From assembly GCA_018434685.1 (NCBI GenBank), contig JAHDOV010000003.1:28302-92301 (forward strand): DNA of 64,000 nucleotides, in the 5' to 3' direction. The stretch's first letter is position 1. Each line of letters opens with the position of its first letter. Both the position numbers and the translations under genes were made by a program. The notes beneath the pieces are model-generated. The model was not told the origin of the DNA, ran no database searches, and saw nothing but the letters and a program-made list of their open reading frames with translations. The DNA comes from Deltaproteobacteria bacterium. Lineage in GTDB: Bacteria; Desulfobacterota; Desulfomonilia; UBA1062. Shown here one piece after another: positions 5,563 to 32,004 of the stretch.

Positions 5563-5755
5563 CCGGACACGGACGGGTTACCGGAGAGTAACCAGGATTA
5601 CAAACCGATGGTAATCTCAGTTACAAGCCGGTAACCGGTGTAACCGCCGAAATTTAGTCGCCCAGCCTTTATAATTCATCAACATACTGAAAACACTTAA
5701 TAAATTATAATTTTAAGACGTGTCACATATTTGGCACCAGCCTTGCCTTATAGAC

Positions 5756-5786
5756 CCCCAGATCGGAACAACGATCTGGGGGGTAT
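5756..5786 (+). promoter_or_regulatory. 11-bp-stem hairpin overlapping the SD/GTG start of the protease gene
   Basis: CCCCCAGATCG-gaacaa-CGATCTGGGGGG lies immediately before the GTG start at 5790. Its 3' arm contains the G-rich ribosome-binding region. Confidence 0.4.
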
Positions 5787-5789
5787 AGG

Positions 5790-7151
5790 GTGAAAGACTT
5801 TAGAGCAACGCTTATCGGACTCGTGGTATTCAGTCTCGTCAGTGTACCGGCATTTCCGGCCGAGTATAAACCCGACGAGGTCATTGTGAAGTTCAAATCG
5901 GATCATCCCCTGACTGCTTCCATGGTGAGAGGTGACGAGAACCGGGCCATGACCGTTGCCGTGGACGACGCCCAGGAGGCAATCCGGACGCTCGAGACCA
6001 TGGAGGGTGTAGAGTATGTCGAGCCCAACTATGTGATCGAGGCGGAGAGCATACCCAATGACTGGCCGTATGAAAACAGCGAGTGGGAAGATACCGGTCT
6101 GCCCGGGGCCTGGGATCTCGTCGAGGAAGCCGGTCCCGGTTCCCAGGTGATTGTCGCGGTCATCGATTCCGGGGTCGATCTCGATCATCCGGAACTCGAG
6201 GACATCCTGATCTCGGGATACGATTTCGCGAACAACGATGCCGTCCCCGAGGATGACACCGGGCATGGCACCAGGGTCTGCGGCATACTCGGTGCCCTGG
6301 GAGATAATCTCTCAGGCATCGCGGGGGTCGCCTGGAACTGCGATATCGTTATCATGCCCCTGAAGTTCATGAAGAATAACGACGGCAAGACAACGGGGAG
6401 TCTCTCCGATGCCATCGACGCCATCTACTATGCCGTTGATCACGGGGCGGATGTCATAAATGCGAGCTGGGGCTTCTACTCCTACTCCGGGTCGCTGGAG
6501 GAGGCAGTCCGCTACGCCCGCGACCATGGGGTATTGTTCATTGCCTCTGCCGGCAATAAAGCCCAGGACAACGACACGAACGACCACTACCCGTCGAATT
6601 ACCCGTTGGACAACATCATCGCCGTAGCCGCCATGAACCGCTACAATGATCTCGCGTCGTTCTCGAACTATGGAGAGAACAGCGTGGATATCGCCGCACC
6701 GGGCGACGGCCTCAAAACCACGGATCTTGGGGGAGGCTATGCGAGCTGGGTATCGGGAACCTCGTTTGCGACCCCTTTTGTCACCGGGGTTGCAGCCATG
6801 ATGATCTCGCAGTTTCCGGATCTGGACTATCTTTCGGTTCGGGTTGCCCTGCTCGATGCCGCGGTGCTCGATGCGGGTTACAGCGAGAGGCTCCTTGAGA
6901 GCGGCGGGTGTGTAAATGCATACAATGCACTCCTGGCAGAGGAAGACGCGGATGTCTTTTCCAGGGCCTCGAGTGCTTCGGCCCAGTCTGATCCCACAGG
7001 GACAGGTTCTCAGGTCAGTGGCGAATCAGGAGGAGGCGGGGGCGGCTGCATGATCGAAAGCACGAGAAATGCAGGCAATGCCGCCGGTATGGTCATCTCC
7101 CTTATGTTGATAGTCTTGTTCCCCATGTTGCGCGCGAAACATCGGGAATAA
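5790..7151 (+). CDS. Secreted subtilisin-like serine protease (peptidase S8) with C-terminal Gly-rich/Cys-TM-basic tail
   Basis: Signal peptide, catalytic D (VIDSGVD), H (HGTRV) and S (GTSFATPFV) blocks. The tail is GGGGGGC followed by a hydrophobic helix and RAKHRE. Confidence 0.9.
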   Translation: MKDFRATLIGLVVFSLVSVPAFPAEYKPDEVIVKFKSDHPLTASMVRGDENRAMTVAVDDAQEAIRTLETMEGVEYVEPNYVIEAESIPNDWPYENSEWEDTGLPGAWDLVEEAGPGSQVIVAVIDSGVDLDHPELEDILISGYDFANNDAVPEDDTGHGTRVCGILGALGDNLSGIAGVAWNCDIVIMPLKFMKNNDGKTTGSLSDAIDAIYYAVDHGADVINASWGFYSYSGSLEEAVRYARDHGVLFIASAGNKAQDNDTNDHYPSNYPLDNIIAVAAMNRYNDLASFSNYGENSVDIAAPGDGLKTTDLGGGYASWVSGTSFATPFVTGVAAMMISQFPDLDYLSVRVALLDAAVLDAGYSERLLESGGCVNAYNALLAEEDADVFSRASSASAQSDPTGTGSQVSGESGGGGGGCMIESTRNAGNAAGMVISLMLIVLFPMLRAKHRE

Positions 7152-25757: not shown

Positions 25758-28700
25758 TTGATGTGTGATGATGTAATTGCGTGCCCACGCTGTGGAGTGG
25801 TTGGCGGGCGTTCGGACAGATTCTGCAGACACTGCGGCGTATCCCTGGATCACGGGGGACACGTCCGTGAATATCGCCACGTAACCGCCCTGTTCTCCGA
25901 CCTGTGTGAATATACCCCCCTGACCGAGGAACTCGAACCCGAAGAACTCAAGGATATCATGGACACCCTCTTTGCGAAGTCTGCCCACATCATTGCCGCA
26001 TACGGCGGGAGTGTGGAAAAGTTTGTGGGAGACGGGGTTGTCGCCCTGTTCGGGCTGGACGATATGCACGAGCACCATGCCGTTTCGGCAATTCACGCCG
26101 CACGGGAGATTCACGGGTTTGCCCGCGAGATTGCCGGTGAGTCGTATCCCTGCCTCGGCAGGGGAATCTCCATGCATACCGGCATCAATACCGGCCTGGT
26201 GCTCGTAGATCAGCAGTGGGATGACCGCAATGCCCACGGCGCCTTGGGCACGCCGATCAACATCGCATCCAGGCTTTCAGCCCTGGCAGGCCCGGACGAT
26301 ATACTCATCGGGGAGACGGTCATGACCGATGCGGCGCGTCATTTCACCATCGAAGGCATGGGGAAAAAGCGTCTCAAGGGTGTCCGGGAACCGATGAGGG
26401 TGTTCCGGGTCCTTTCCGCCAGAGAGGTGCCGGTAGGCATCCACCGGCAAGGCGGCATCACCTCGGGCCTGATCGGCCGAAAGAAAGAGCTCGCAGCCCT
26501 TGTGCATGCCTTCGATAACCTGCTGGAGGGGAAGGGTTCGGCGGTGTGTATACACGGGGACCCGGGCGTGGGGAAAAGCAGGCTGATACACGAGTTCAGG
26601 AAACAGGTGCCTAAGCGGACCAGATGGATACATGCCCAGTGCCTGGACCATACGAAAGACACCCCCTACTGTCCGATAACCGGCCTCGCCAGGGCCCTCC
26701 TGGGGATTCGTGAGGGAAGGGACAGCAGGGAAGAGGTGGAAGAGAAGATCAGGGCGTTTTCTTCGGATATGCGGCACAGCGCCTCCCTGATATCTCTTTG
26801 CAACGCGCAGGCCTCTGCCATGCAGGTGATGCCCGGTGAATGGAAGGCCGGGATCTGCGATGCATTCTCATGGCTGATCCGCTCTGCCGGCACTGTCTCG
26901 CCTCTTGTTGTGTGCATAGAGGATATTCACTGGGCGGACCGCTCTACCCTTGACCTGCTGGAATATCTTTTCCAGGACAGGGAGGCAGCAGGCTCGTGTC
27001 TGTTCCTCATCAGCACACGGGCCGTCTCAGAGCTGATCCCGGTTAGTGCGCACATTGGGTTGAACGATCTGGACCGGACAGAAGTTGCAGCAATGCTCGG
27101 GCACATGCTCGAGGGAAATCGTATCCCGGAGGCGGCTGTAACGTATCTGTACCGGGAAACAGGGGGGAATCCGTTCTACATCGAGGAGGTGGTCAACTAT
27201 CTTTTCGAGAAGGGCATTTCCCTGTCGCAGTGTGCTCACGGGGAGATCCCGGGCGGTGTTCCCTCGACCATTCAGGGGCTCATCGCGGCTCGTCTGCTGA
27301 ACCTCGGTGCGGAACTCAAGACGCTGCTGCAGGAGGCATCGGTAATCGGCAAGGTGTTTCCGAAGACCCTCCTGGCGGCGGTAAGTACCCGGCAGACGCA
27401 GTTCGATGCCGGCCTCTGGGGTCTTCAAGAGGCCGGGTTCATCCATGAGTCCGAATCCGGTGAATACCGCTTCCGGCATGCGCTGACCCAGGAAGTGGCC
27501 TATCAGACCCAGCTGAAGCGCCACCGGATGATGATGCACAAGAAGGTGGGCCGGGCACTGGAGCGGATGGGGCGGGCTCCGGGAGATATCTGCGACATGC
27601 TCGCCTACCATTTCGATTGTGCCGGTGAAAAAGACCTCGCGATTCAGTACAGTATCATGGCCGCCCGGAAATATCAGGCCGAGGGAGCATGGGTGGAAGC
27701 TGCCGCCCACTATAGGATCGCCGAGAAATGGCTGCTCGTGACCGCTGAGGCGGACCGTGACCGGGAAGGCCTGGCAGCAGTATGGGAAGGGATCTGGTCA
27801 TGCGCCCGTATCCTCGACCCGAACCTGGCCGTTCGGGCACTGGAATCCCTCCGAGGGCATCATGCCCGCTCTGGCGCGAGCCGGGGCGAGGCCTTTGTGC
27901 TGATCCGCCTCATCAACCTCTATTCTCAAAAGGGTCTGTTCAAAGAAGCTCTCGATACCTTTGAGCAGGCCCTTGAGAGTGCAGGGGACGATGGGATCCT
28001 CCGCAGTGCTGCGCAGACCGCTGTTGCCTACACCTACACCTATCTCGGCAGGCCGGATGTTTCTCTGGGGTATCTGAACGAGGCGAGGCCGGCCCTGGGG
28101 ACGGCGGACAGATTTCTCCTTGCCGTCAACCACCTCACGACCCTTACCGCCTATGTCTGGAAGGGCGCCGTACAGGAAGCCATGGCATGGTACTCGCAGA
28201 CGAAGGACCTCTGCGGGGACTACCTGGATCTCGAACTCATGGCGGAGATCTACCTGGGATACCTTCATTACCTCAGGGGCGATTTCCCTCGGGCGCGGCA
28301 GGTATTCGAGCTGGTGCACGCCCAGGAGAGGAAACTCGGCAGTCTTGCGGGGGGATTATCGTACCTGAGAATCCAGAGCTCCATATACTTCAATGCCCGC
28401 TATACCGGAGAGCTCGACAGGGCCGGTGAAGAGCTCAGGATGTTCGAGGCGCTCGATAACGGGATGAAGGGCTTCCCGGCGCTGATAAGCCTCTATCGCG
28501 CATGGATCGCGGTGGAGAAGGGACAGTGCGAACAGGCACGGGATCTGCTCATGATGGCGCTGCCGGTTTTCGAAGAGGGGATTGCGAACAGGGTTCCCTA
28601 TGCACTCAACGTCCTTGCCGAGGCACTGGAGACCATGGGGGACACCGAGGGGGCCGAACGGGTTGCGCTCAAGGGCATTGCCTGGAATGAACTCAACGGC

Positions 28701-28997
28701 AATCAGGATCAGCTTGTCTGGGCACTGAGGATCATGGGACGGCTCTATCTTCGCCAGGAGATGTTCGATGAGACCCGTGACGCCTTGAAGAGGGCCTCGT
28801 TTCTGGCCAGGGCGTGTTCCATGCGGCCGCACACTGCATGGACCCTGGAGTCCTGGGGAGATTATTTTCGGTCGACGGGTCAGGCAAAACGGGCGGATGC
28901 CTGTTATCACAGGGCTGTGGCCCTGTGGAGAGGGATGGCTAATCCGTATCAGGCAGGCAAACTGTCTTCACGGATTATCAACACGGGGCATTCCTGA
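25758..28997 (+). CDS. Multidomain signalling protein: N-terminal Zn-ribbon, class III adenylyl/guanylyl cyclase domain, STAND/AAA+ P-loop NTPase, C-terminal TPR repeats
   Basis: CPRCG...CRHCG zinc ribbon. Cyclase core ALFSDLCEYT...KFVGDGVVALFG. Walker A GDPGVGKSRL. Long helical TPR-like C-terminus. Confidence 0.85.
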   Translation: MMCDDVIACPRCGVVGGRSDRFCRHCGVSLDHGGHVREYRHVTALFSDLCEYTPLTEELEPEELKDIMDTLFAKSAHIIAAYGGSVEKFVGDGVVALFGLDDMHEHHAVSAIHAAREIHGFAREIAGESYPCLGRGISMHTGINTGLVLVDQQWDDRNAHGALGTPINIASRLSALAGPDDILIGETVMTDAARHFTIEGMGKKRLKGVREPMRVFRVLSAREVPVGIHRQGGITSGLIGRKKELAALVHAFDNLLEGKGSAVCIHGDPGVGKSRLIHEFRKQVPKRTRWIHAQCLDHTKDTPYCPITGLARALLGIREGRDSREEVEEKIRAFSSDMRHSASLISLCNAQASAMQVMPGEWKAGICDAFSWLIRSAGTVSPLVVCIEDIHWADRSTLDLLEYLFQDREAAGSCLFLISTRAVSELIPVSAHIGLNDLDRTEVAAMLGHMLEGNRIPEAAVTYLYRETGGNPFYIEEVVNYLFEKGISLSQCAHGEIPGGVPSTIQGLIAARLLNLGAELKTLLQEASVIGKVFPKTLLAAVSTRQTQFDAGLWGLQEAGFIHESESGEYRFRHALTQEVAYQTQLKRHRMMMHKKVGRALERMGRAPGDICDMLAYHFDCAGEKDLAIQYSIMAARKYQAEGAWVEAAAHYRIAEKWLLVTAEADRDREGLAAVWEGIWSCARILDPNLAVRALESLRGHHARSGASRGEAFVLIRLINLYSQKGLFKEALDTFEQALESAGDDGILRSAAQTAVAYTYTYLGRPDVSLGYLNEARPALGTADRFLLAVNHLTTLTAYVWKGAVQEAMAWYSQTKDLCGDYLDLELMAEIYLGYLHYLRGDFPRARQVFELVHAQERKLGSLAGGLSYLRIQSSIYFNARYTGELDRAGEELRMFEALDNGMKGFPALISLYRAWIAVEKGQCEQARDLLMMALPVFEEGIANRVPYALNVLAEALETMGDTEGAERVALKGIAWNELNGNQDQLVWALRIMGRLYLRQEMFDETRDALKRASFLARACSMRPHTAWTLESWGDYFRSTGQAKRADACYHRAVALWRGMANPYQAGKLSSRIINTGHS

Positions 28998-29113
28998 GTG
29001 CAGGACGCCCCCCGCGGTGCCTCAGAGGCACCAGGATGAGGCTTCGCCCGGCCGACAGGGGCAACCCGAATAGGTATTGCACAGAAGCCGGAGGTGTATT
29101 ATTTAAAAGGGCA

Positions 29114-30121
29114 ATGCCCCAGCTTGTACTGTACCAGAAATATTCCAGGAGCGAGGTGCTCGAGATATTCTCACCCGGGACACCCTTCATCCCGCAGAGG
29201 GGTGCATGGGGGCTCCATACGATCGTGGGGCTCCATGGCCGGCCGGGTGACTGGGTCTTTTTCACGACCCAGGAGCATACAGAGGGTTCATCCGAAGAAG
29301 GGATAACGAAAGACGGGGTCTTTACCTGGAAATCAAAGGCCGGCCAGGCCCTGAAAGACCCGCAGATACGGCAGTTCATCACCCATGACGAACTGCGCAA
29401 TACGATCTATCTCTTCTGCCGGCAGAAAAAGCAGGGGAGATACACCTACCTGGGCAGGCTGAAATATCTGCGGCATGACGCGTCGCGCGAGAAGCCGGTG
29501 TATATCCAGTGGCAGATCCTTGACTGGAATATATCCCAGAAAGAGTTGAACCGGTCCGGTCTGGTCCTGCAGGACGAGAGGCAGCCGGGAGACCATGAAC
29601 GCCTCCCCTTGAGAAGCATGCTCCGGGAGACACCCCCCCCGCTGAATCTGCTTGAGGACGGTATCACAGGCGATGCCTTTCGACGCACCAGGACACCGGA
29701 TTTTTCCGCTGAAGAGGTACTGGATACAGAGCTCGTTATTGCCGGAGAAAAGATCGTGATAGCCCATGAAAAGAGAGCGCTCATCCAGGCGGGCAGGGCC
29801 GATCTCGCCCACAAGGTGCGGCATGTCGCGGCAATAGAGGGTGAGCACGCCGGCTATGATATCGAGTCGTATACCGCAGAGGGGGCGGTGAAGTATATCG
29901 AGGTGAAGACTACCAGGGGAGGTGCCGAAGCCCCGTTCTACCTGAGAACCCACGAGCTGGAATTTGCCAGACAGCATGCCGGCGAGTACTACCTCTACCG
30001 GGTGTACGAGTATGACGAGGCCTTCAATGCCGGGAAGTTATACATCGTCACCGGAGATATCGAGGAGATTTTCCGCCTCACCCCGACAGGATACCGGGCT
30101 ACCCGCTCCAGACCTTCCTGA
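29114..30121 (+). CDS. DUF3883 (NOV C-terminal, PD-(D/E)xK nuclease-like) domain protein with uncharacterised N-terminal beta-rich domain
   Basis: The C-terminus GYDIESY...VKYIEVKTT...FYLRTHELEF...YYLYRVYEY matches the DUF3883 core with a D...E-x-K arrangement. Start set at the Met after the upstream gene's stop; the ORF track begins at 29036. Confidence 0.7.
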   Translation: MPQLVLYQKYSRSEVLEIFSPGTPFIPQRGAWGLHTIVGLHGRPGDWVFFTTQEHTEGSSEEGITKDGVFTWKSKAGQALKDPQIRQFITHDELRNTIYLFCRQKKQGRYTYLGRLKYLRHDASREKPVYIQWQILDWNISQKELNRSGLVLQDERQPGDHERLPLRSMLRETPPPLNLLEDGITGDAFRRTRTPDFSAEEVLDTELVIAGEKIVIAHEKRALIQAGRADLAHKVRHVAAIEGEHAGYDIESYTAEGAVKYIEVKTTRGGAEAPFYLRTHELEFARQHAGEYYLYRVYEYDEAFNAGKLYIVTGDIEEIFRLTPTGYRATRSRPS

Positions 30122-30379
30122 GATCTTTTCTGATAACCAACCACTTCAGTCTAAAGGCTTTTTTGATTATCGATTCACCAGTCCATTTATTCGTTAATAT
30201 TTTTCCCCATCCAGGCGATACGGTCACTATACGGGCCCGGCATGAGCCCGGGCGTGTTCTTTGACAATCGAAGAAAGAGAGCCATGTGTATTCTTTGAAC
30301 CCAGAGAATAGACATGGGTAAAAGAGTGACGGGTGCATAAGGGCCGACCAGGGGCGGATAATCAACCGCCCTGCCTTTA

Positions 30380-30450
30380 GCCAAACCACAGGCGACTGTG
30401 GGACGGAAAGCCACGGGTCTGCTTTTGCAGACAGCCGGGCCGCCTCCTCA
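30380..30450 (+). promoter_or_regulatory. c-di-GMP-I (GEMM) riboswitch-type aptamer, tandem copy 1
   Basis: GCCAAACC-ACAG-GCGA-CTGT-GGGACGGAAAGCCACGGG, then the hairpin GTCTGC-TTTT-GCAGAC. It aligns with the Vc2 aptamer core GGCAAACC-[GNRA hairpin]-GGGACGCAAAGCC.CGG. Confidence 0.65.
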
Positions 30451-30518
30451 GCCAAACCAGGGGCAACTCTGGGACGGAAAGTCACGGGTCCGCTTCAGGG
30501 CGGACGGCCGGGCTGCCT
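30451..30518 (+). promoter_or_regulatory. c-di-GMP-I (GEMM) riboswitch-type aptamer, tandem copy 2
   Basis: GCCAAACC-AGGG-GCAA-CTCT-GGGACGGAAAGTCACGGG, then GTCCGC-TTCAGG-GCGGAC. Confidence 0.65.
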
Positions 30519-30548
30519 GAGAAGGTTTCAACAGCAGCAAGGATTCAC

Positions 30549-30618
30549 GCCAAACCAGGGGTAACCCTGGGACGGAAAGCCACGGGTCCGCTTCAGCGCG
30601 GACAGCCGGGTTGCCTGG
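30549..30618 (+). promoter_or_regulatory. c-di-GMP-I (GEMM) riboswitch-type aptamer, tandem copy 3 (27 nt upstream of start codon region)
   Basis: GCCAAACC-AGGG-GTAA-CCCT-GGGACGGAAAGCCACGGG, then GTCCGC-TTCAGC-GCGGAC. The GNRA loops vary between copies (GCGA/GCAA/GTAA) while the stems co-vary. Confidence 0.65.
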
Positions 30619-30644
30619 AGAAACTGATCAGAAAGGAGTACCAG

Positions 30645-31139
30645 ATGAAAAGAAAAAGCCTATTGGCTGTGTTGTGCATAATCGGACTGCTCATGCTCCC
30701 TCATGCAAGTTTTGCAAAGCTCAGCACCCTGACTGAGGATCAGCTCGGAGAGGTTGTCGGTCAGGCCGGGATAGCCTTCAGCGTGACGAATCTCGGCATC
30801 AACATGGTCATGGATACGCTCAGCTACGGGGATCTCGACGGGCTGGGCGGCGATACACAGGCAGGCTTCCTGAGCCTGTGTGATGTTACCTACCGCGCAA
30901 GCATGAATTTCCCGACCCCGATGACCCTGGACGTCGTCACGATGGCGACCCGGTTGGGCACCGAGGTCTCGAGCCTCAACTTCCATCTGAACGACATGTC
31001 CATCGATATCGATGAATTCACTATCGGTGCCATCCGGATCGGGCCCGAGCCGGGAGCGGGACCGAGCCTGGGCAGTTTCGGCATCTACGACATGCACATG
31101 GATATTACCGGAGATGTACAGATATCAACAAGACCTTGA
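30645..31139 (+). CDS. Small secreted hypothetical protein (riboswitch-controlled)
   Basis: Signal peptide MKRKSLLAVLCIIGLLMLPHASFA. Conserved-looking LTEDQLGEVVGQAG block. 164 aa, Gly/Asp-rich. Confidence 0.55.
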   Translation: MKRKSLLAVLCIIGLLMLPHASFAKLSTLTEDQLGEVVGQAGIAFSVTNLGINMVMDTLSYGDLDGLGGDTQAGFLSLCDVTYRASMNFPTPMTLDVVTMATRLGTEVSSLNFHLNDMSIDIDEFTIGAIRIGPEPGAGPSLGSFGIYDMHMDITGDVQISTRP

Positions 31140-31203
31140 CCCTGTATCCGTTGCTCTTTTACCGGCCTTTCTTGCCGCCTCTTGTTCAGCCGCCGCCTCG
31201 GGA

Positions 31204-32004
31204 TTACTGACGGATGAGCCTGCAGGGCCTGGTCTCTTCGGGGGTGATCTCCACGTTTGCACGGACAGGATTGATGTCGATGCCCCCCCTGCGGGTGAAC
31301 AGGCAGGATACCGTGAGTCGTTGTGGGCGGCAGCGCTCCATGATATGGCGGTAGATCTGTTCACAGCACTGCTCGCCGAAGCCTTCGTGGTCCCGGTAGG
31401 AACAGATGTAACTCAGCAGAGCCTCATCCCGTATCTTTCTGCCTGCATAGTCTATGATCACGCTGCCCCAGTCGGGCTGATGGGTGATGGGACAGAAGGT
31501 GCGCAGCACATGGGAATAGAGCACCTCACGGGCCTGGTGCGTCCCGGTCGCGAGCAGCATGGGGTCGGGGAGTGCCGAGTGGATCTCGATATCCAGGGAA
31601 TCGATGCAGGTGCCTTCAGGAGAGGTGTGCCAGGGTATGGATGCCATCGCGGTCTCGTCGTAGACCACGACCGACAGCCAGGGGGTCTCCAAAATGCGTT
31701 CGAGATCGGCCATCAGGAGCCGGGAAAGCTCGCCTAGCGAACCGAACCTCCTGTTCGACAGTCCGTGCAGGTAGAGCTTTAAGGACTTCGATTCGACGAT
31801 ATTCCTGCTCTGCCGGGGATAGATCAGCTCGAGGATCCCGATACACGGTTTGCCTCTGGCAGTGAGCCATGCCAGCTCATACGAGCGCCACAGGTCGAAG
31901 CCGAACATGGGCAGGGCAGGCTCCGGCCGGGCAATGGGGAACAGGATGGAAGGGTCGTACCTGCTGGGAGACGGGGTCTGTTTTCCGAGAGGGATGTCAC
32001 TCAT
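31204..32004 (-). CDS. queF: NADPH-dependent 7-cyano-7-deazaguanine reductase (two-domain YqcD type)
   Basis: QueF motif E(S)KSLKLYL and the catalytic Cys region; ~270 aa bimodular type. Confidence 0.88.
   Translation of the reverse strand: MSDIPLGKQTPSPSRYDPSILFPIARPEPALPMFGFDLWRSYELAWLTARGKPCIGILELIYPRQSRNIVESKSLKLYLHGLSNRRFGSLGELSRLLMADLERILETPWLSVVVYDETAMASIPWHTSPEGTCIDSLDIEIHSALPDPMLLATGTHQAREVLYSHVLRTFCPITHQPDWGSVIIDYAGRKIRDEALLSYICSYRDHEGFGEQCCEQIYRHIMERCRPQRLTVSCLFTRRGGIDINPVRANVEITPEETRPCRLIRQ

Follow-up and report, generated by a model that had tools for sequence, protein, structure and literature searches.

The gene considered here is an open reading frame (ORF) of 164 amino acids (aa) in a 64,000-nucleotide stretch of contig JAHDOV010000003.1 from a Deltaproteobacteria bacterium, referred to below as the 64-kb window. 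Our analysis suggested that it encodes an orphan subunit of a Fil-type (DUF6160) extracellular fibre gated by cyclic di-GMP (c-di-GMP), a reading to which we assign a probability of about 60%. The protein was found to belong to the DUF6160 family, c-di-GMP-I (GEMM-I) riboswitch aptamers were found directly in front of the gene and were conserved in orthologous loci, and family members were found together with Fil machinery in other loci. Production of the protein is probably tied by its three aptamers to the decision of the cell to attach or aggregate. The coordinates of all features are listed in Table 1.

The protein passed the threshold of the Pfam DUF6160 model (PF19657) over residues 5-86, with 33 bits against a gathering score of 27 (E = 7.3e-8), and its orthologues are already named 'DUF6160 family protein' at NCBI. 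The NCBIfam model of the Acinetobacter protein FilA (NF050077) gave 20.4 bits (E = 2.7e-4), below its cut-off of 220 bits; by these scores the 164-aa protein is a distant relative of FilA and not its orthologue. Two papers mention FilA, one naming it as the pilus subunit of the Fil system in Acinetobacter sp. Tol 5 (PMC11784438) and the other describing it, as A1S_0690, as a predicted pilus subunit of A. baumannii (PMC5757984). A literature search on DUF6160 itself returned one irrelevant mention. A profile search of 1.84 billion representatives returned 410 relatives, many of them about 160 aa long and others of 300-770 aa with 2-5 repeats of the unit. Common to all of them is a signal peptide with x-S-D-x-x-L-x-x-V-T-G-Q-A-G-(V/I)-S-I after it. 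Eight wider-family members were scanned, and the N-terminus of each matched FilA (1e-12 to 1e-6). No DUF6160 paralogue was found in the 64-kb window.

The link to a solved filament was obtained with a profile of 62 small family members, whose sole match among 177,635 Protein Data Bank (PDB) sequences was 9xfv_A (E = 7.8e-4); a profile of the narrower subfamily gave no match among the PDB sequences. Conversely, the 9XFV chain, rebuilt from the printed alignment, passed the Pfam DUF6160 model (38.8 bits, E = 1.1e-9). The entry holds 25 chains of 173 residues and is described as "pilus-like-alpha", a helical filament from karst-cave water solved by cryo-electron microscopy (cryo-EM), with a rise of 11.7 Å and a twist of 283.86 degrees (PMC12956863). 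Since the 62-sequence profile finds 9xfv_A and the 9XFV chain passes DUF6160, sequence similarity presents DUF6160 as a family of filament subunits with one solved example. The preliminary description had spoken of a secreted factor of unknown function with no annotation. The protein does look secreted; the claim that it has no annotation was not borne out, and because the family includes FilA and 9XFV it is better read as a fibre or pilus-like subunit. We also observed an internal two-fold β-hairpin repeat in both 9xfv_A (residues 17-44 and 138-165) and the window protein (about 52-87 and 122-157). The shared repeat, x-I-G-S-x-K-x-x-x-x-x-A-S-x-G-S-V-x-x-N-x-I, fits larger members being multiples of the unit. 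An AlphaFold2 model based on 36 homologues was all-β with long hairpins and a mean predicted local distance difference test score of 76.5, residues 22-40 being of low confidence. A Foldseek search of this model against the PDB gave a best E of 0.023, to gasdermin/perforin hairpins with template modelling scores below 0.2, and these matches were discarded as shape noise.

The N-terminal region of the protein carries two successive putative signals. The features of a Sec signal were read from the sequence, with MKRK as basic n-region, SLLAVLCIIGLLMLP as hydrophobic core and ASFA↓K as small-residue site, and A24 was invariant in 36 homologues. The block that follows, LTEDQLGEVVGQAGIAF, was the best-conserved part of the protein, with Q40 and G42 invariant and L34, V37, G39 and A41 nearly so. 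Both the secretion signal and the conserved N-terminal block of the preliminary description were thus found, within an ORF that is present as described there, with an ATG start. The double-glycine leader has the consensus L-S-x-x-E-L-x-x-I-x-G-G. The window protein reads L29-T-E-D-Q33-L34-G-E-V37-V-G39-Q40↓A41-G42, and the spacing of this block matches a double-glycine leader in which Q replaces the last G. Among 225 family members, the leader positions were occupied by L/M/I/V at -12 (94%), S/T at -11 (69%), D/E at -10 (83%), E/Q/D at -8 (75%), L/M at -7 (92%), V/I/L at -4 (90%), G/A at -2 and Q at -1 (86%), the values at -7, -4, -2 and -1 being partly fixed by the search pattern and the others not. 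After G-Q, position +1 was A/S in 81% and position +2 was G in 86%.

In the alignment with the solved filament, residue 2 of 9XFV corresponded to G42, and residue 1, the equivalent of A41, to Pfam profile position 40. The modelled filament subunit would therefore start exactly at the expected leader cut. The start of the 9XFV chain may, however, be its first ordered residue rather than its true N-terminus, so that we treat the cleavage as a putative step. A candidate enzyme was found behind the larger DUF6160 genes of other loci, where a stand-alone C39 peptidase with an N-terminal hydrophobic segment gave a match to NCBIfam FilB and a weaker one to FapD. FapD, which is related to FilB, is a C39 protease of the periplasm on which secretion through FapF depends (PMC5557850).

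Conservation of the gene was evaluated in related genomes. Among 5.8 billion proteins searched, 20 homologues were found, each with PF19657, and their named sources were metagenome-assembled genomes (MAGs) of Desulfomonilia or "Deltaproteobacteria". A profile search for homologues gave 92 matches, and precomputed PF19657 annotations were present on all homologues save a few short or distant matches. A scan with one genome per species found 26 loci. Overall, about 30 independent loci, with protein identity down to 36%, repeat the combination of ORF, aptamers and synteny, and over this range the length, the signal peptide, the N-terminal block and the C-terminal block (GPSLGSFGIYDMH) are kept. 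Wherever called genes were listed, the gene order was constant, with a cyclase-AAA16-TPR protein of about 1070 aa, a gap of about 600 nucleotides (nt), the DUF6160 gene and the convergent genes queF-queC-queE. The ratio of nonsynonymous to synonymous substitution rates (dN/dS) of the ORF at 30645..31139 was 0.17-0.18 against two orthologues of about 70% identity, which indicated purifying selection. Because of this ratio and the recurrence in about 30 loci, the gene and its arrangement are more than chance.

The aptamers of these loci were sought in three ways, with Rfam, with a covariance model built from 11 of these aptamers and with a pattern count. They were found directly upstream of every orthologue not cut by a contig end, most loci having three at about -275, -195 and -95. 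The complete Smithellaceae chromosome OY821638 (locus L034) has four tandem GEMM-I aptamers at 5656-5966 by the covariance model, three of them confirmed by Rfam. In the wider family, the covariance model found no GEMM aptamer in 80 metagenome loci of larger DUF6160 proteins, and Rfam found none in the 12 longest. The sole riboswitch link outside the 160-aa subfamily was in a Geobacteraceae MAG (locus L035), where a single GEMM-I aptamer at 5762-5856 precedes a 196-aa DUF6160 gene in a Fil-like cluster of DUF6160 paralogues, a PD40 protein and a FilB-type C39 peptidase. The riboswitch link is specific to the 160-aa subfamily plus this one Geobacteraceae gene. The conservation of the ORF that the preliminary description had left to be checked was thus observed, and the GEMM association of homologues held for the orthologues of the 160-aa subfamily and failed for the wider family.

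The machinery that would export such a subunit is probably encoded elsewhere. In the locus L035, in a distant-homologue locus (L036) and in many of the 80 wider-family metagenome loci, an operon of recurring order was observed, consisting of two or three DUF6160 genes, FilB (C39 peptidase), FilC (FapF-like barrel), FilD (FadL/OmpP1-type barrel) and a PD40 β-propeller protein; FilB matched the FapD model and FilC the FapF model. The 160-aa subfamily is always an orphan gene, unlinked from this machinery. On the chromosome OY821638, the riboswitch-linked orthologue lies at 5.09 Mb and a full Fil-like operon (L118) at 2.38-2.40 Mb, 2.7 Mb apart, and no GEMM aptamer was found at that operon. Matching of C39-peptidase against orthologue protein accessions linked none to the same assemblies.

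We propose the following course of events. The precursor would cross the inner membrane via Sec with the signal peptide of residues 1-24, and a periplasmic peptidase of the FilB/FapD type (C39) would then remove the double-glycine-type leader by a cut after G39-Q40. Fil-type outer-membrane machinery, with a FapF-like FilC and a FadL-like FilD barrel encoded elsewhere in the genome, would export the mature domain of about 124 residues, which may polymerise or join a fibre for attachment or aggregation. The argument for polymerisation into an extracellular filament is homology to 9XFV and FilA. The three adjacent c-di-GMP-I aptamers in the 5' leader would set synthesis, and the presence of several aptamers could give a steep response. 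Several observations count against the fibre subunit. The Pfam match at residues 5-86 is largely signal peptide and leader, and the subfamily profile aligned weakly to the 9XFV chain (hhalign probability 6.8%, 24 columns). No FilB, FilC, FilD or PD40 gene was found in the 64-kb window or beside any 160-aa-subfamily orthologue, and the literature found on Fil pili is thin, consisting of passing mentions only.

The main rival, which we regard as unlikely, is an accessory role in a Fil-type fibre instead of that of bulk subunit, for example as nucleator, tip, cap or anchor (cf. CsgB and FapB/FapE), with c-di-GMP gating whether or how fibres form and not the supply of the building block. Such a role would suit a protein that retains the family leader, is only half as large as the FilA-like proteins encoded in operons (about 320-350 aa, two repeats) and has a gene that always stands apart from the machinery. 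It would also suit the locus L034, where two larger DUF6160 genes, of 355 and 323 aa, are found a short way upstream of the orthologue, outside the riboswitch. However, the 9XFV filament is built of a comparably small subunit (173 residues), so size is no bar to bulk polymerisation.

A second alternative, to which we give a distinctly smaller chance, is a secreted or envelope protein that shares only the DUF6160 leader and works without Fil machinery, for example as a surface or outer-membrane-associated β-sheet protein or a matrix component. The absence of machinery genes from the window and from the neighbourhood of every orthologue would agree with this, as would the weak similarity beyond the N-terminal 86 or so residues and the long β-hairpins of the AlphaFold2 model, for which, apart from 9XFV, the fold matches were of low significance. 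Yet the positions of the C39-type site are invariant or nearly so, which is hard to explain without a peptidase; the C-terminal repeat also aligns to 9XFV; and a related complete genome does have a Fil operon.

Turning to the leader RNA of the fibre-subunit candidate, the three GEMM aptamers that the preliminary description had placed directly upstream of the gene were recovered. Aptamers 1 and 3 passed the RF01051 gathering threshold (35 bits). Aptamer 2 came from a permissive scan of 29900-31300 (1.4 kb) and lay below the gathering thresholds (RF03167, 59 bits); an equivalent of it is present in the orthologous loci. In the alignments, all three aptamers have an unpaired G just before the GC/CC pair and AAA after GACGG; we take this G to be G20 and the A after GACGG to be A47 in Vc2 numbering. 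The canonical G and A stand at the positions read as ligand contacts, and c-di-GMP, not cyclic GMP-AMP (cGAMP), is therefore the expected ligand. A position at which either G or A occurs contacts the ligand directly and separates binders of c-di-GMP from those of c-AMP-GMP (PMC9481103); we map it to the unpaired G.

It was also observed that, for these aptamers, the E-values of the c-di-GMP-I-GGC model (RF03167) are better than those of the standard model, and that in L034 and in two other orthologous loci (L001 and L003) RF03167 reaches its own threshold. The window aptamers, with 58.2, 56.0 and 49.2 bits, did not reach that threshold, and they have A, not G, at the first position after GACGC (RF03167 consensus GCGAA vs GCAAA). 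The higher rank of RF03167 is read, from these positions, as a lineage effect and not a change of ligand. A specificity for cGAMP or that of a 'GGC variant' was rejected, since the aptamers carry the canonical G and A.

The spacers measure 2 nt between aptamers 1 and 2 and 22 nt between aptamers 2 and 3. A scan for terminator-like sites gave none from 30254 to 31300, neither between the aptamers nor before the ORF. The array is thus not a tandem of complete riboswitches with an expression platform for each aptamer. As known tandems of c-di-GMP-I aptamers, 347 doublets and 12 triplets have been counted, and the triplet Bc3-5 has been characterised (PMC9481103, PMC4759541). Given that no terminator separates the aptamers, translational control is the most likely mode, and it probably acts on initiation through alternative pairings around the Shine-Dalgarno sequence, as suggested by the folding models. 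A single platform at the ribosome-binding site appears to serve all three aptamers (all four in L034).

The pairings available to such a platform were examined by alignment and folding. Three segments were nearly invariant, namely CCUCCU(C/UC)A.. between aptamers 1 and 2, CCUGAGAAGG(U/A)UUC..CAG between aptamers 2 and 3, and CCUG(G/A)AGAA.CU.AUCAGAAAGGAG after aptamer 3. CCUCCU occurred in every three-aptamer locus with a readable linker, and AUCAGAAAGGAG was invariant or nearly so in 18 aligned leaders. The helix that closes aptamer 3 (30517-30534 with 30614-30631) had energies of -14.4 to -18.0 kcal/mol in all nine loci tested, and one of its pairs, U-A in the window, is reversed to A-U in L033. 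Energies of -8.3 to -12.6 kcal/mol were obtained for the putative P1 of aptamer 2, which clearly beat shuffled sequences in most loci; in the window, the duplex of the CUCCU linker with the CUGAGAAGG segment reached -12.1 kcal/mol, against -4.9 ± 1.8 for shuffles. The minimum-free-energy structure of the full leader pairs CUCCU at 30444-30448 with AGGAG at 30634-30638. In 19 orthologous leaders folded without ligand, the predicted paired probability of the Shine-Dalgarno sequence was 0.54-0.99, to which pairing with CUCCU contributes. In L034, a local UCUCCU-GAA-AGGAG hairpin was observed that could sequester the ribosome-binding site.

Three results speak against this arrangement. The duplex of CUCCU with the Shine-Dalgarno sequence has only -7.0 kcal/mol, no better than shuffled linkers; the two partners never vary, which makes covariation uninformative; and the strongest helix, that closing aptamer 3, competes with the putative aptamer-2 P1 for the purine-rich segment. 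On these grounds, thermodynamics did not decide between ON and OFF. Adhesins are usually induced by c-di-GMP. For this reason, and because closing aptamer 2 would remove the candidate anti-Shine-Dalgarno sequence, we lean towards a switch that is ON at high c-di-GMP.

Two linked ideas follow the leader RNA and the protein leader together, and we put them forward jointly as a tentative proposal that may well fail. The first is a single multi-ligand sensor with one translational platform, in which the CCUCCU linker may double as a strand of the aptamer-2 P1 and as a long-range anti-Shine-Dalgarno sequence. The second is a periplasmic leader cut after G-Q by C39 peptidases of the FilB/FapD class. 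A single-platform tandem architecture is not described for c-di-GMP-I among the tandems reviewed in PMC9481103. If true, cleavage after G-Q would be a substrate rule for the FilB/FapD-class C39 peptidases, an uncharacterised group, and the maturation step of a distinct Fap-like pilus pathway, and c-di-GMP would gate only an orphan subunit that alters fibre composition.

As the preliminary description had stated, the gene is monocistronic, with no other ORF of standing between the aptamers and the gene and with queF (31204..32004, minus strand) next downstream and convergent, followed by queC and queE. Its description of the protein as Gly/Asp-rich proved only mildly true, with G at 11.0%, D at 7.9% and a pI of 4.1-4.4. 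It was observed that only 64 nt (31140-31203) lie between the stop codon and the convergent end of queF, so that transcripts from both sides may overlap. No terminator-like site was found 3' of the ORF in a scan to 31300, which covers the 64-nt gap and the first 100 nt or so of queF. A very improbable alternative would make RNA the output, as an unterminated riboswitch transcript antisense to queF-queC-queE that couples c-di-GMP to queuosine synthesis. The missing terminator-like site and the presence of convergent queF in every locus of the lineage with called genes listed would agree with it. However, this synteny comes from one lineage and may be simply inherited, and the ORF, a member of a protein family, shows clear purifying selection. 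A bacteriocin-like product was rejected as hardly conceivable, for although the leader resembles class II bacteriocin leaders and JGI names FilB homologues 'predicted double-glycine peptidase', a Sec signal peptide stands ahead of the leader and is followed, after the leader, by an acidic mature β domain of 124 residues with homology to a filament subunit. In addition, the peptidases associated with the family are separate proteins that start with a hydrophobic segment at the N-terminus and are not domains of ABC transporters, and no immunity or transporter gene lies nearby.

Upstream of aptamer 1, a conserved box was found whose part after the hairpin is also written GGGUAAAAGAGUAAC. Of 22 loci checked, all but L034 have its core, GGGTAAAAGAGT, upstream of the aptamers; a pattern for the full box matched in 7 loci, and one pair of its hairpin changes from A-U to G-C when the window is compared with L001. 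The box at 30261-30333 matched no Rfam family, and a sigma-70 promoter scan found no -10 element there. It is possibly a promoter with a 5' leader hairpin. The sole terminator-like hairpin in 30000-31300, at 30235-30253, is located before the leader and probably marks the end of the ORF that precedes it. That ORF (361 aa, 29036-30121, plus strand), with DUF3427 and NOV_C domains, lies between the cyclase gene and the riboswitch leader; it is present in the window and in L011, is missing from most orthologous loci and looks like an insertion. The upstream neighbour proper (1079 aa, 25758-28997, plus strand) has zinc-ribbon, class III nucleotidyl cyclase, AAA_16 and TPR domains and is a cAMP/cGMP-type cyclase, not a GGDEF enzyme. 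It is conserved wherever called genes were listed, the Guanylate_cyc Pfam match being absent in L006 and L007. It may have a functional link to the c-di-GMP-controlled gene.

Table 1. Features of the DUF6160 gene and its leader (window coordinates).
Feature	Position	Strand	Details
Conserved upstream box	30261..30333	+	TTGACA, hairpin (CCAUGUGUAUUCU...AGAAUAGACAUGG), then GGGUAAAAGAGUGAC; 5' of aptamer 1
c-di-GMP-I (GEMM-I) aptamer 1	30370..30447	+	RF01051, 54.6 bits, gathering score 35, E = 6.5e-8
CUCCU in aptamer 1-2 linker (CCUCCUCAG)	30444..30448	+	5' strand of putative aptamer-2 P1; candidate anti-Shine-Dalgarno
c-di-GMP-I aptamer 2 (core)	30450..30516	+	RF03167, 49.2 bits, E = 3.3e-10, model positions 9-75
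Purine-rich segment CUGAGAAGGUUUCAACAG	30517..30534	+	in folds, pairs with CCUCCUCAG linker (closing aptamer 2) or with 30614-30631
c-di-GMP-I aptamer 3	30539..30618	+	RF01051, 65.6 bits, E = 1.3e-10
3' strand of aptamer-3 closing helix (CUGGAGAAACUGAUCAG)	30614..30631	+	ends 3 nt before Shine-Dalgarno
Shine-Dalgarno AGGAG	30634..30638	+	6 nt before ATG; invariant in aligned leaders
DUF6160 gene ORF	30645..31139	+	ATG start, 164 aa
Residues 1-24, Sec-type signal peptide (MKRKSLLAVLCIIGLLMLPHASFA)	30645..30716	+	sequence features; A24 invariant
Residues 25-40 (KLSTLTEDQLGEVVGQ), double-glycine-type leader motif ending G-Q	30717..30764	+	L-12, T-11, Q-8, L-7, V-4, G-2, Q-1
Residues 41-164 and stop codon, predicted mature all-β fibre-subunit domain	30765..31139	+	two hairpin repeats

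With the reading proposed here, an anonymous-looking gene gains a function-level interpretation as a c-di-GMP-gated surface-fibre subunit. Its hosts are uncultured syntrophs of anaerobic digesters and sediments (Desulfomonilia and Smithella-type MAGs), in which aggregation likely matters. The analysis connects subjects that were separate in the sources searched, namely DUF6160 with the Fil models that NCBI labels a "putative pilus system", the orphan cryo-EM filament 9XFV and the Fap amyloid secretion machinery. It also yields a testable cleavage rule for periplasmic C39 peptidases, with the cut after G-Q in L-S-D-x-E-L-x-x-V-x-G-Q↓A-G. Furthermore, three to four c-di-GMP aptamers that stand close together in a natural array, with no terminators inside it, are relevant to riboswitch cooperativity and sensor design.

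The system was compared with known ones. The Fil system of Acinetobacter (NCBIfam NF050077-NF050080; PF19657) is of the same Pfam family and has the same signal peptide followed by x-S-D-x-x-L-x-x-V-x-G-Q-A-G, and relatives of the window protein elsewhere adjoin FilB (C39), FilC (FapF-like) and FilD (FadL-like). In contrast to FilA (279 aa), the window protein has about 164 aa with a single repeat unit and scores 20 bits against the cut-off of 220, and its gene is a riboswitch-controlled orphan from anaerobes of the Desulfomonilia type rather than from Gammaproteobacteria. The 9XFV subunit has about 16% identity to the window protein and carries an insert of about 55 residues that separates its repeats. 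A leader RNA that gates the gene of a surface-filament subunit is known from the c-di-GMP-II riboswitch upstream of pilA1 in Clostridioides difficile. That case differs in riboswitch class, in its type IV pilus, in its single aptamer and in its terminator-based mechanism. The Bc3-5 triplet of Bacillus thuringiensis reportedly controls a collagen-adhesion gene. Like the window array, it places three class-I aptamers in one 5' leader (PMC4759541), an arrangement read as sharpening the response (PMC9481103). Tandem c-di-GMP-I riboswitches are listed under 'multiple expression platforms' (PMC9481103), for which the window array has no room or terminator. As is proposed here for Fil-type subunits, the Fap system of Pseudomonas moves its substrates via Sec and needs a C39 protease in the periplasm (FapD) for export through the outer-membrane channel FapF (PMC5557850), whereas the DUF6160 subunits are unrelated to FapC and lack Asn/Gln-rich amyloid repeats, and a FadL-type barrel and a PD40 protein are additional components of the Fil operon. 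The substrate of FapD is not established, whereas in DUF6160 the candidate cleavage motif is explicit. Collectively, both the control of a surface-filament subunit by a c-di-GMP riboswitch and the DUF6160 protein itself are of known kinds, and the variant features are the closely spaced array of three or four aptamers without terminators between them and the double-glycine-type leader after a Sec signal.

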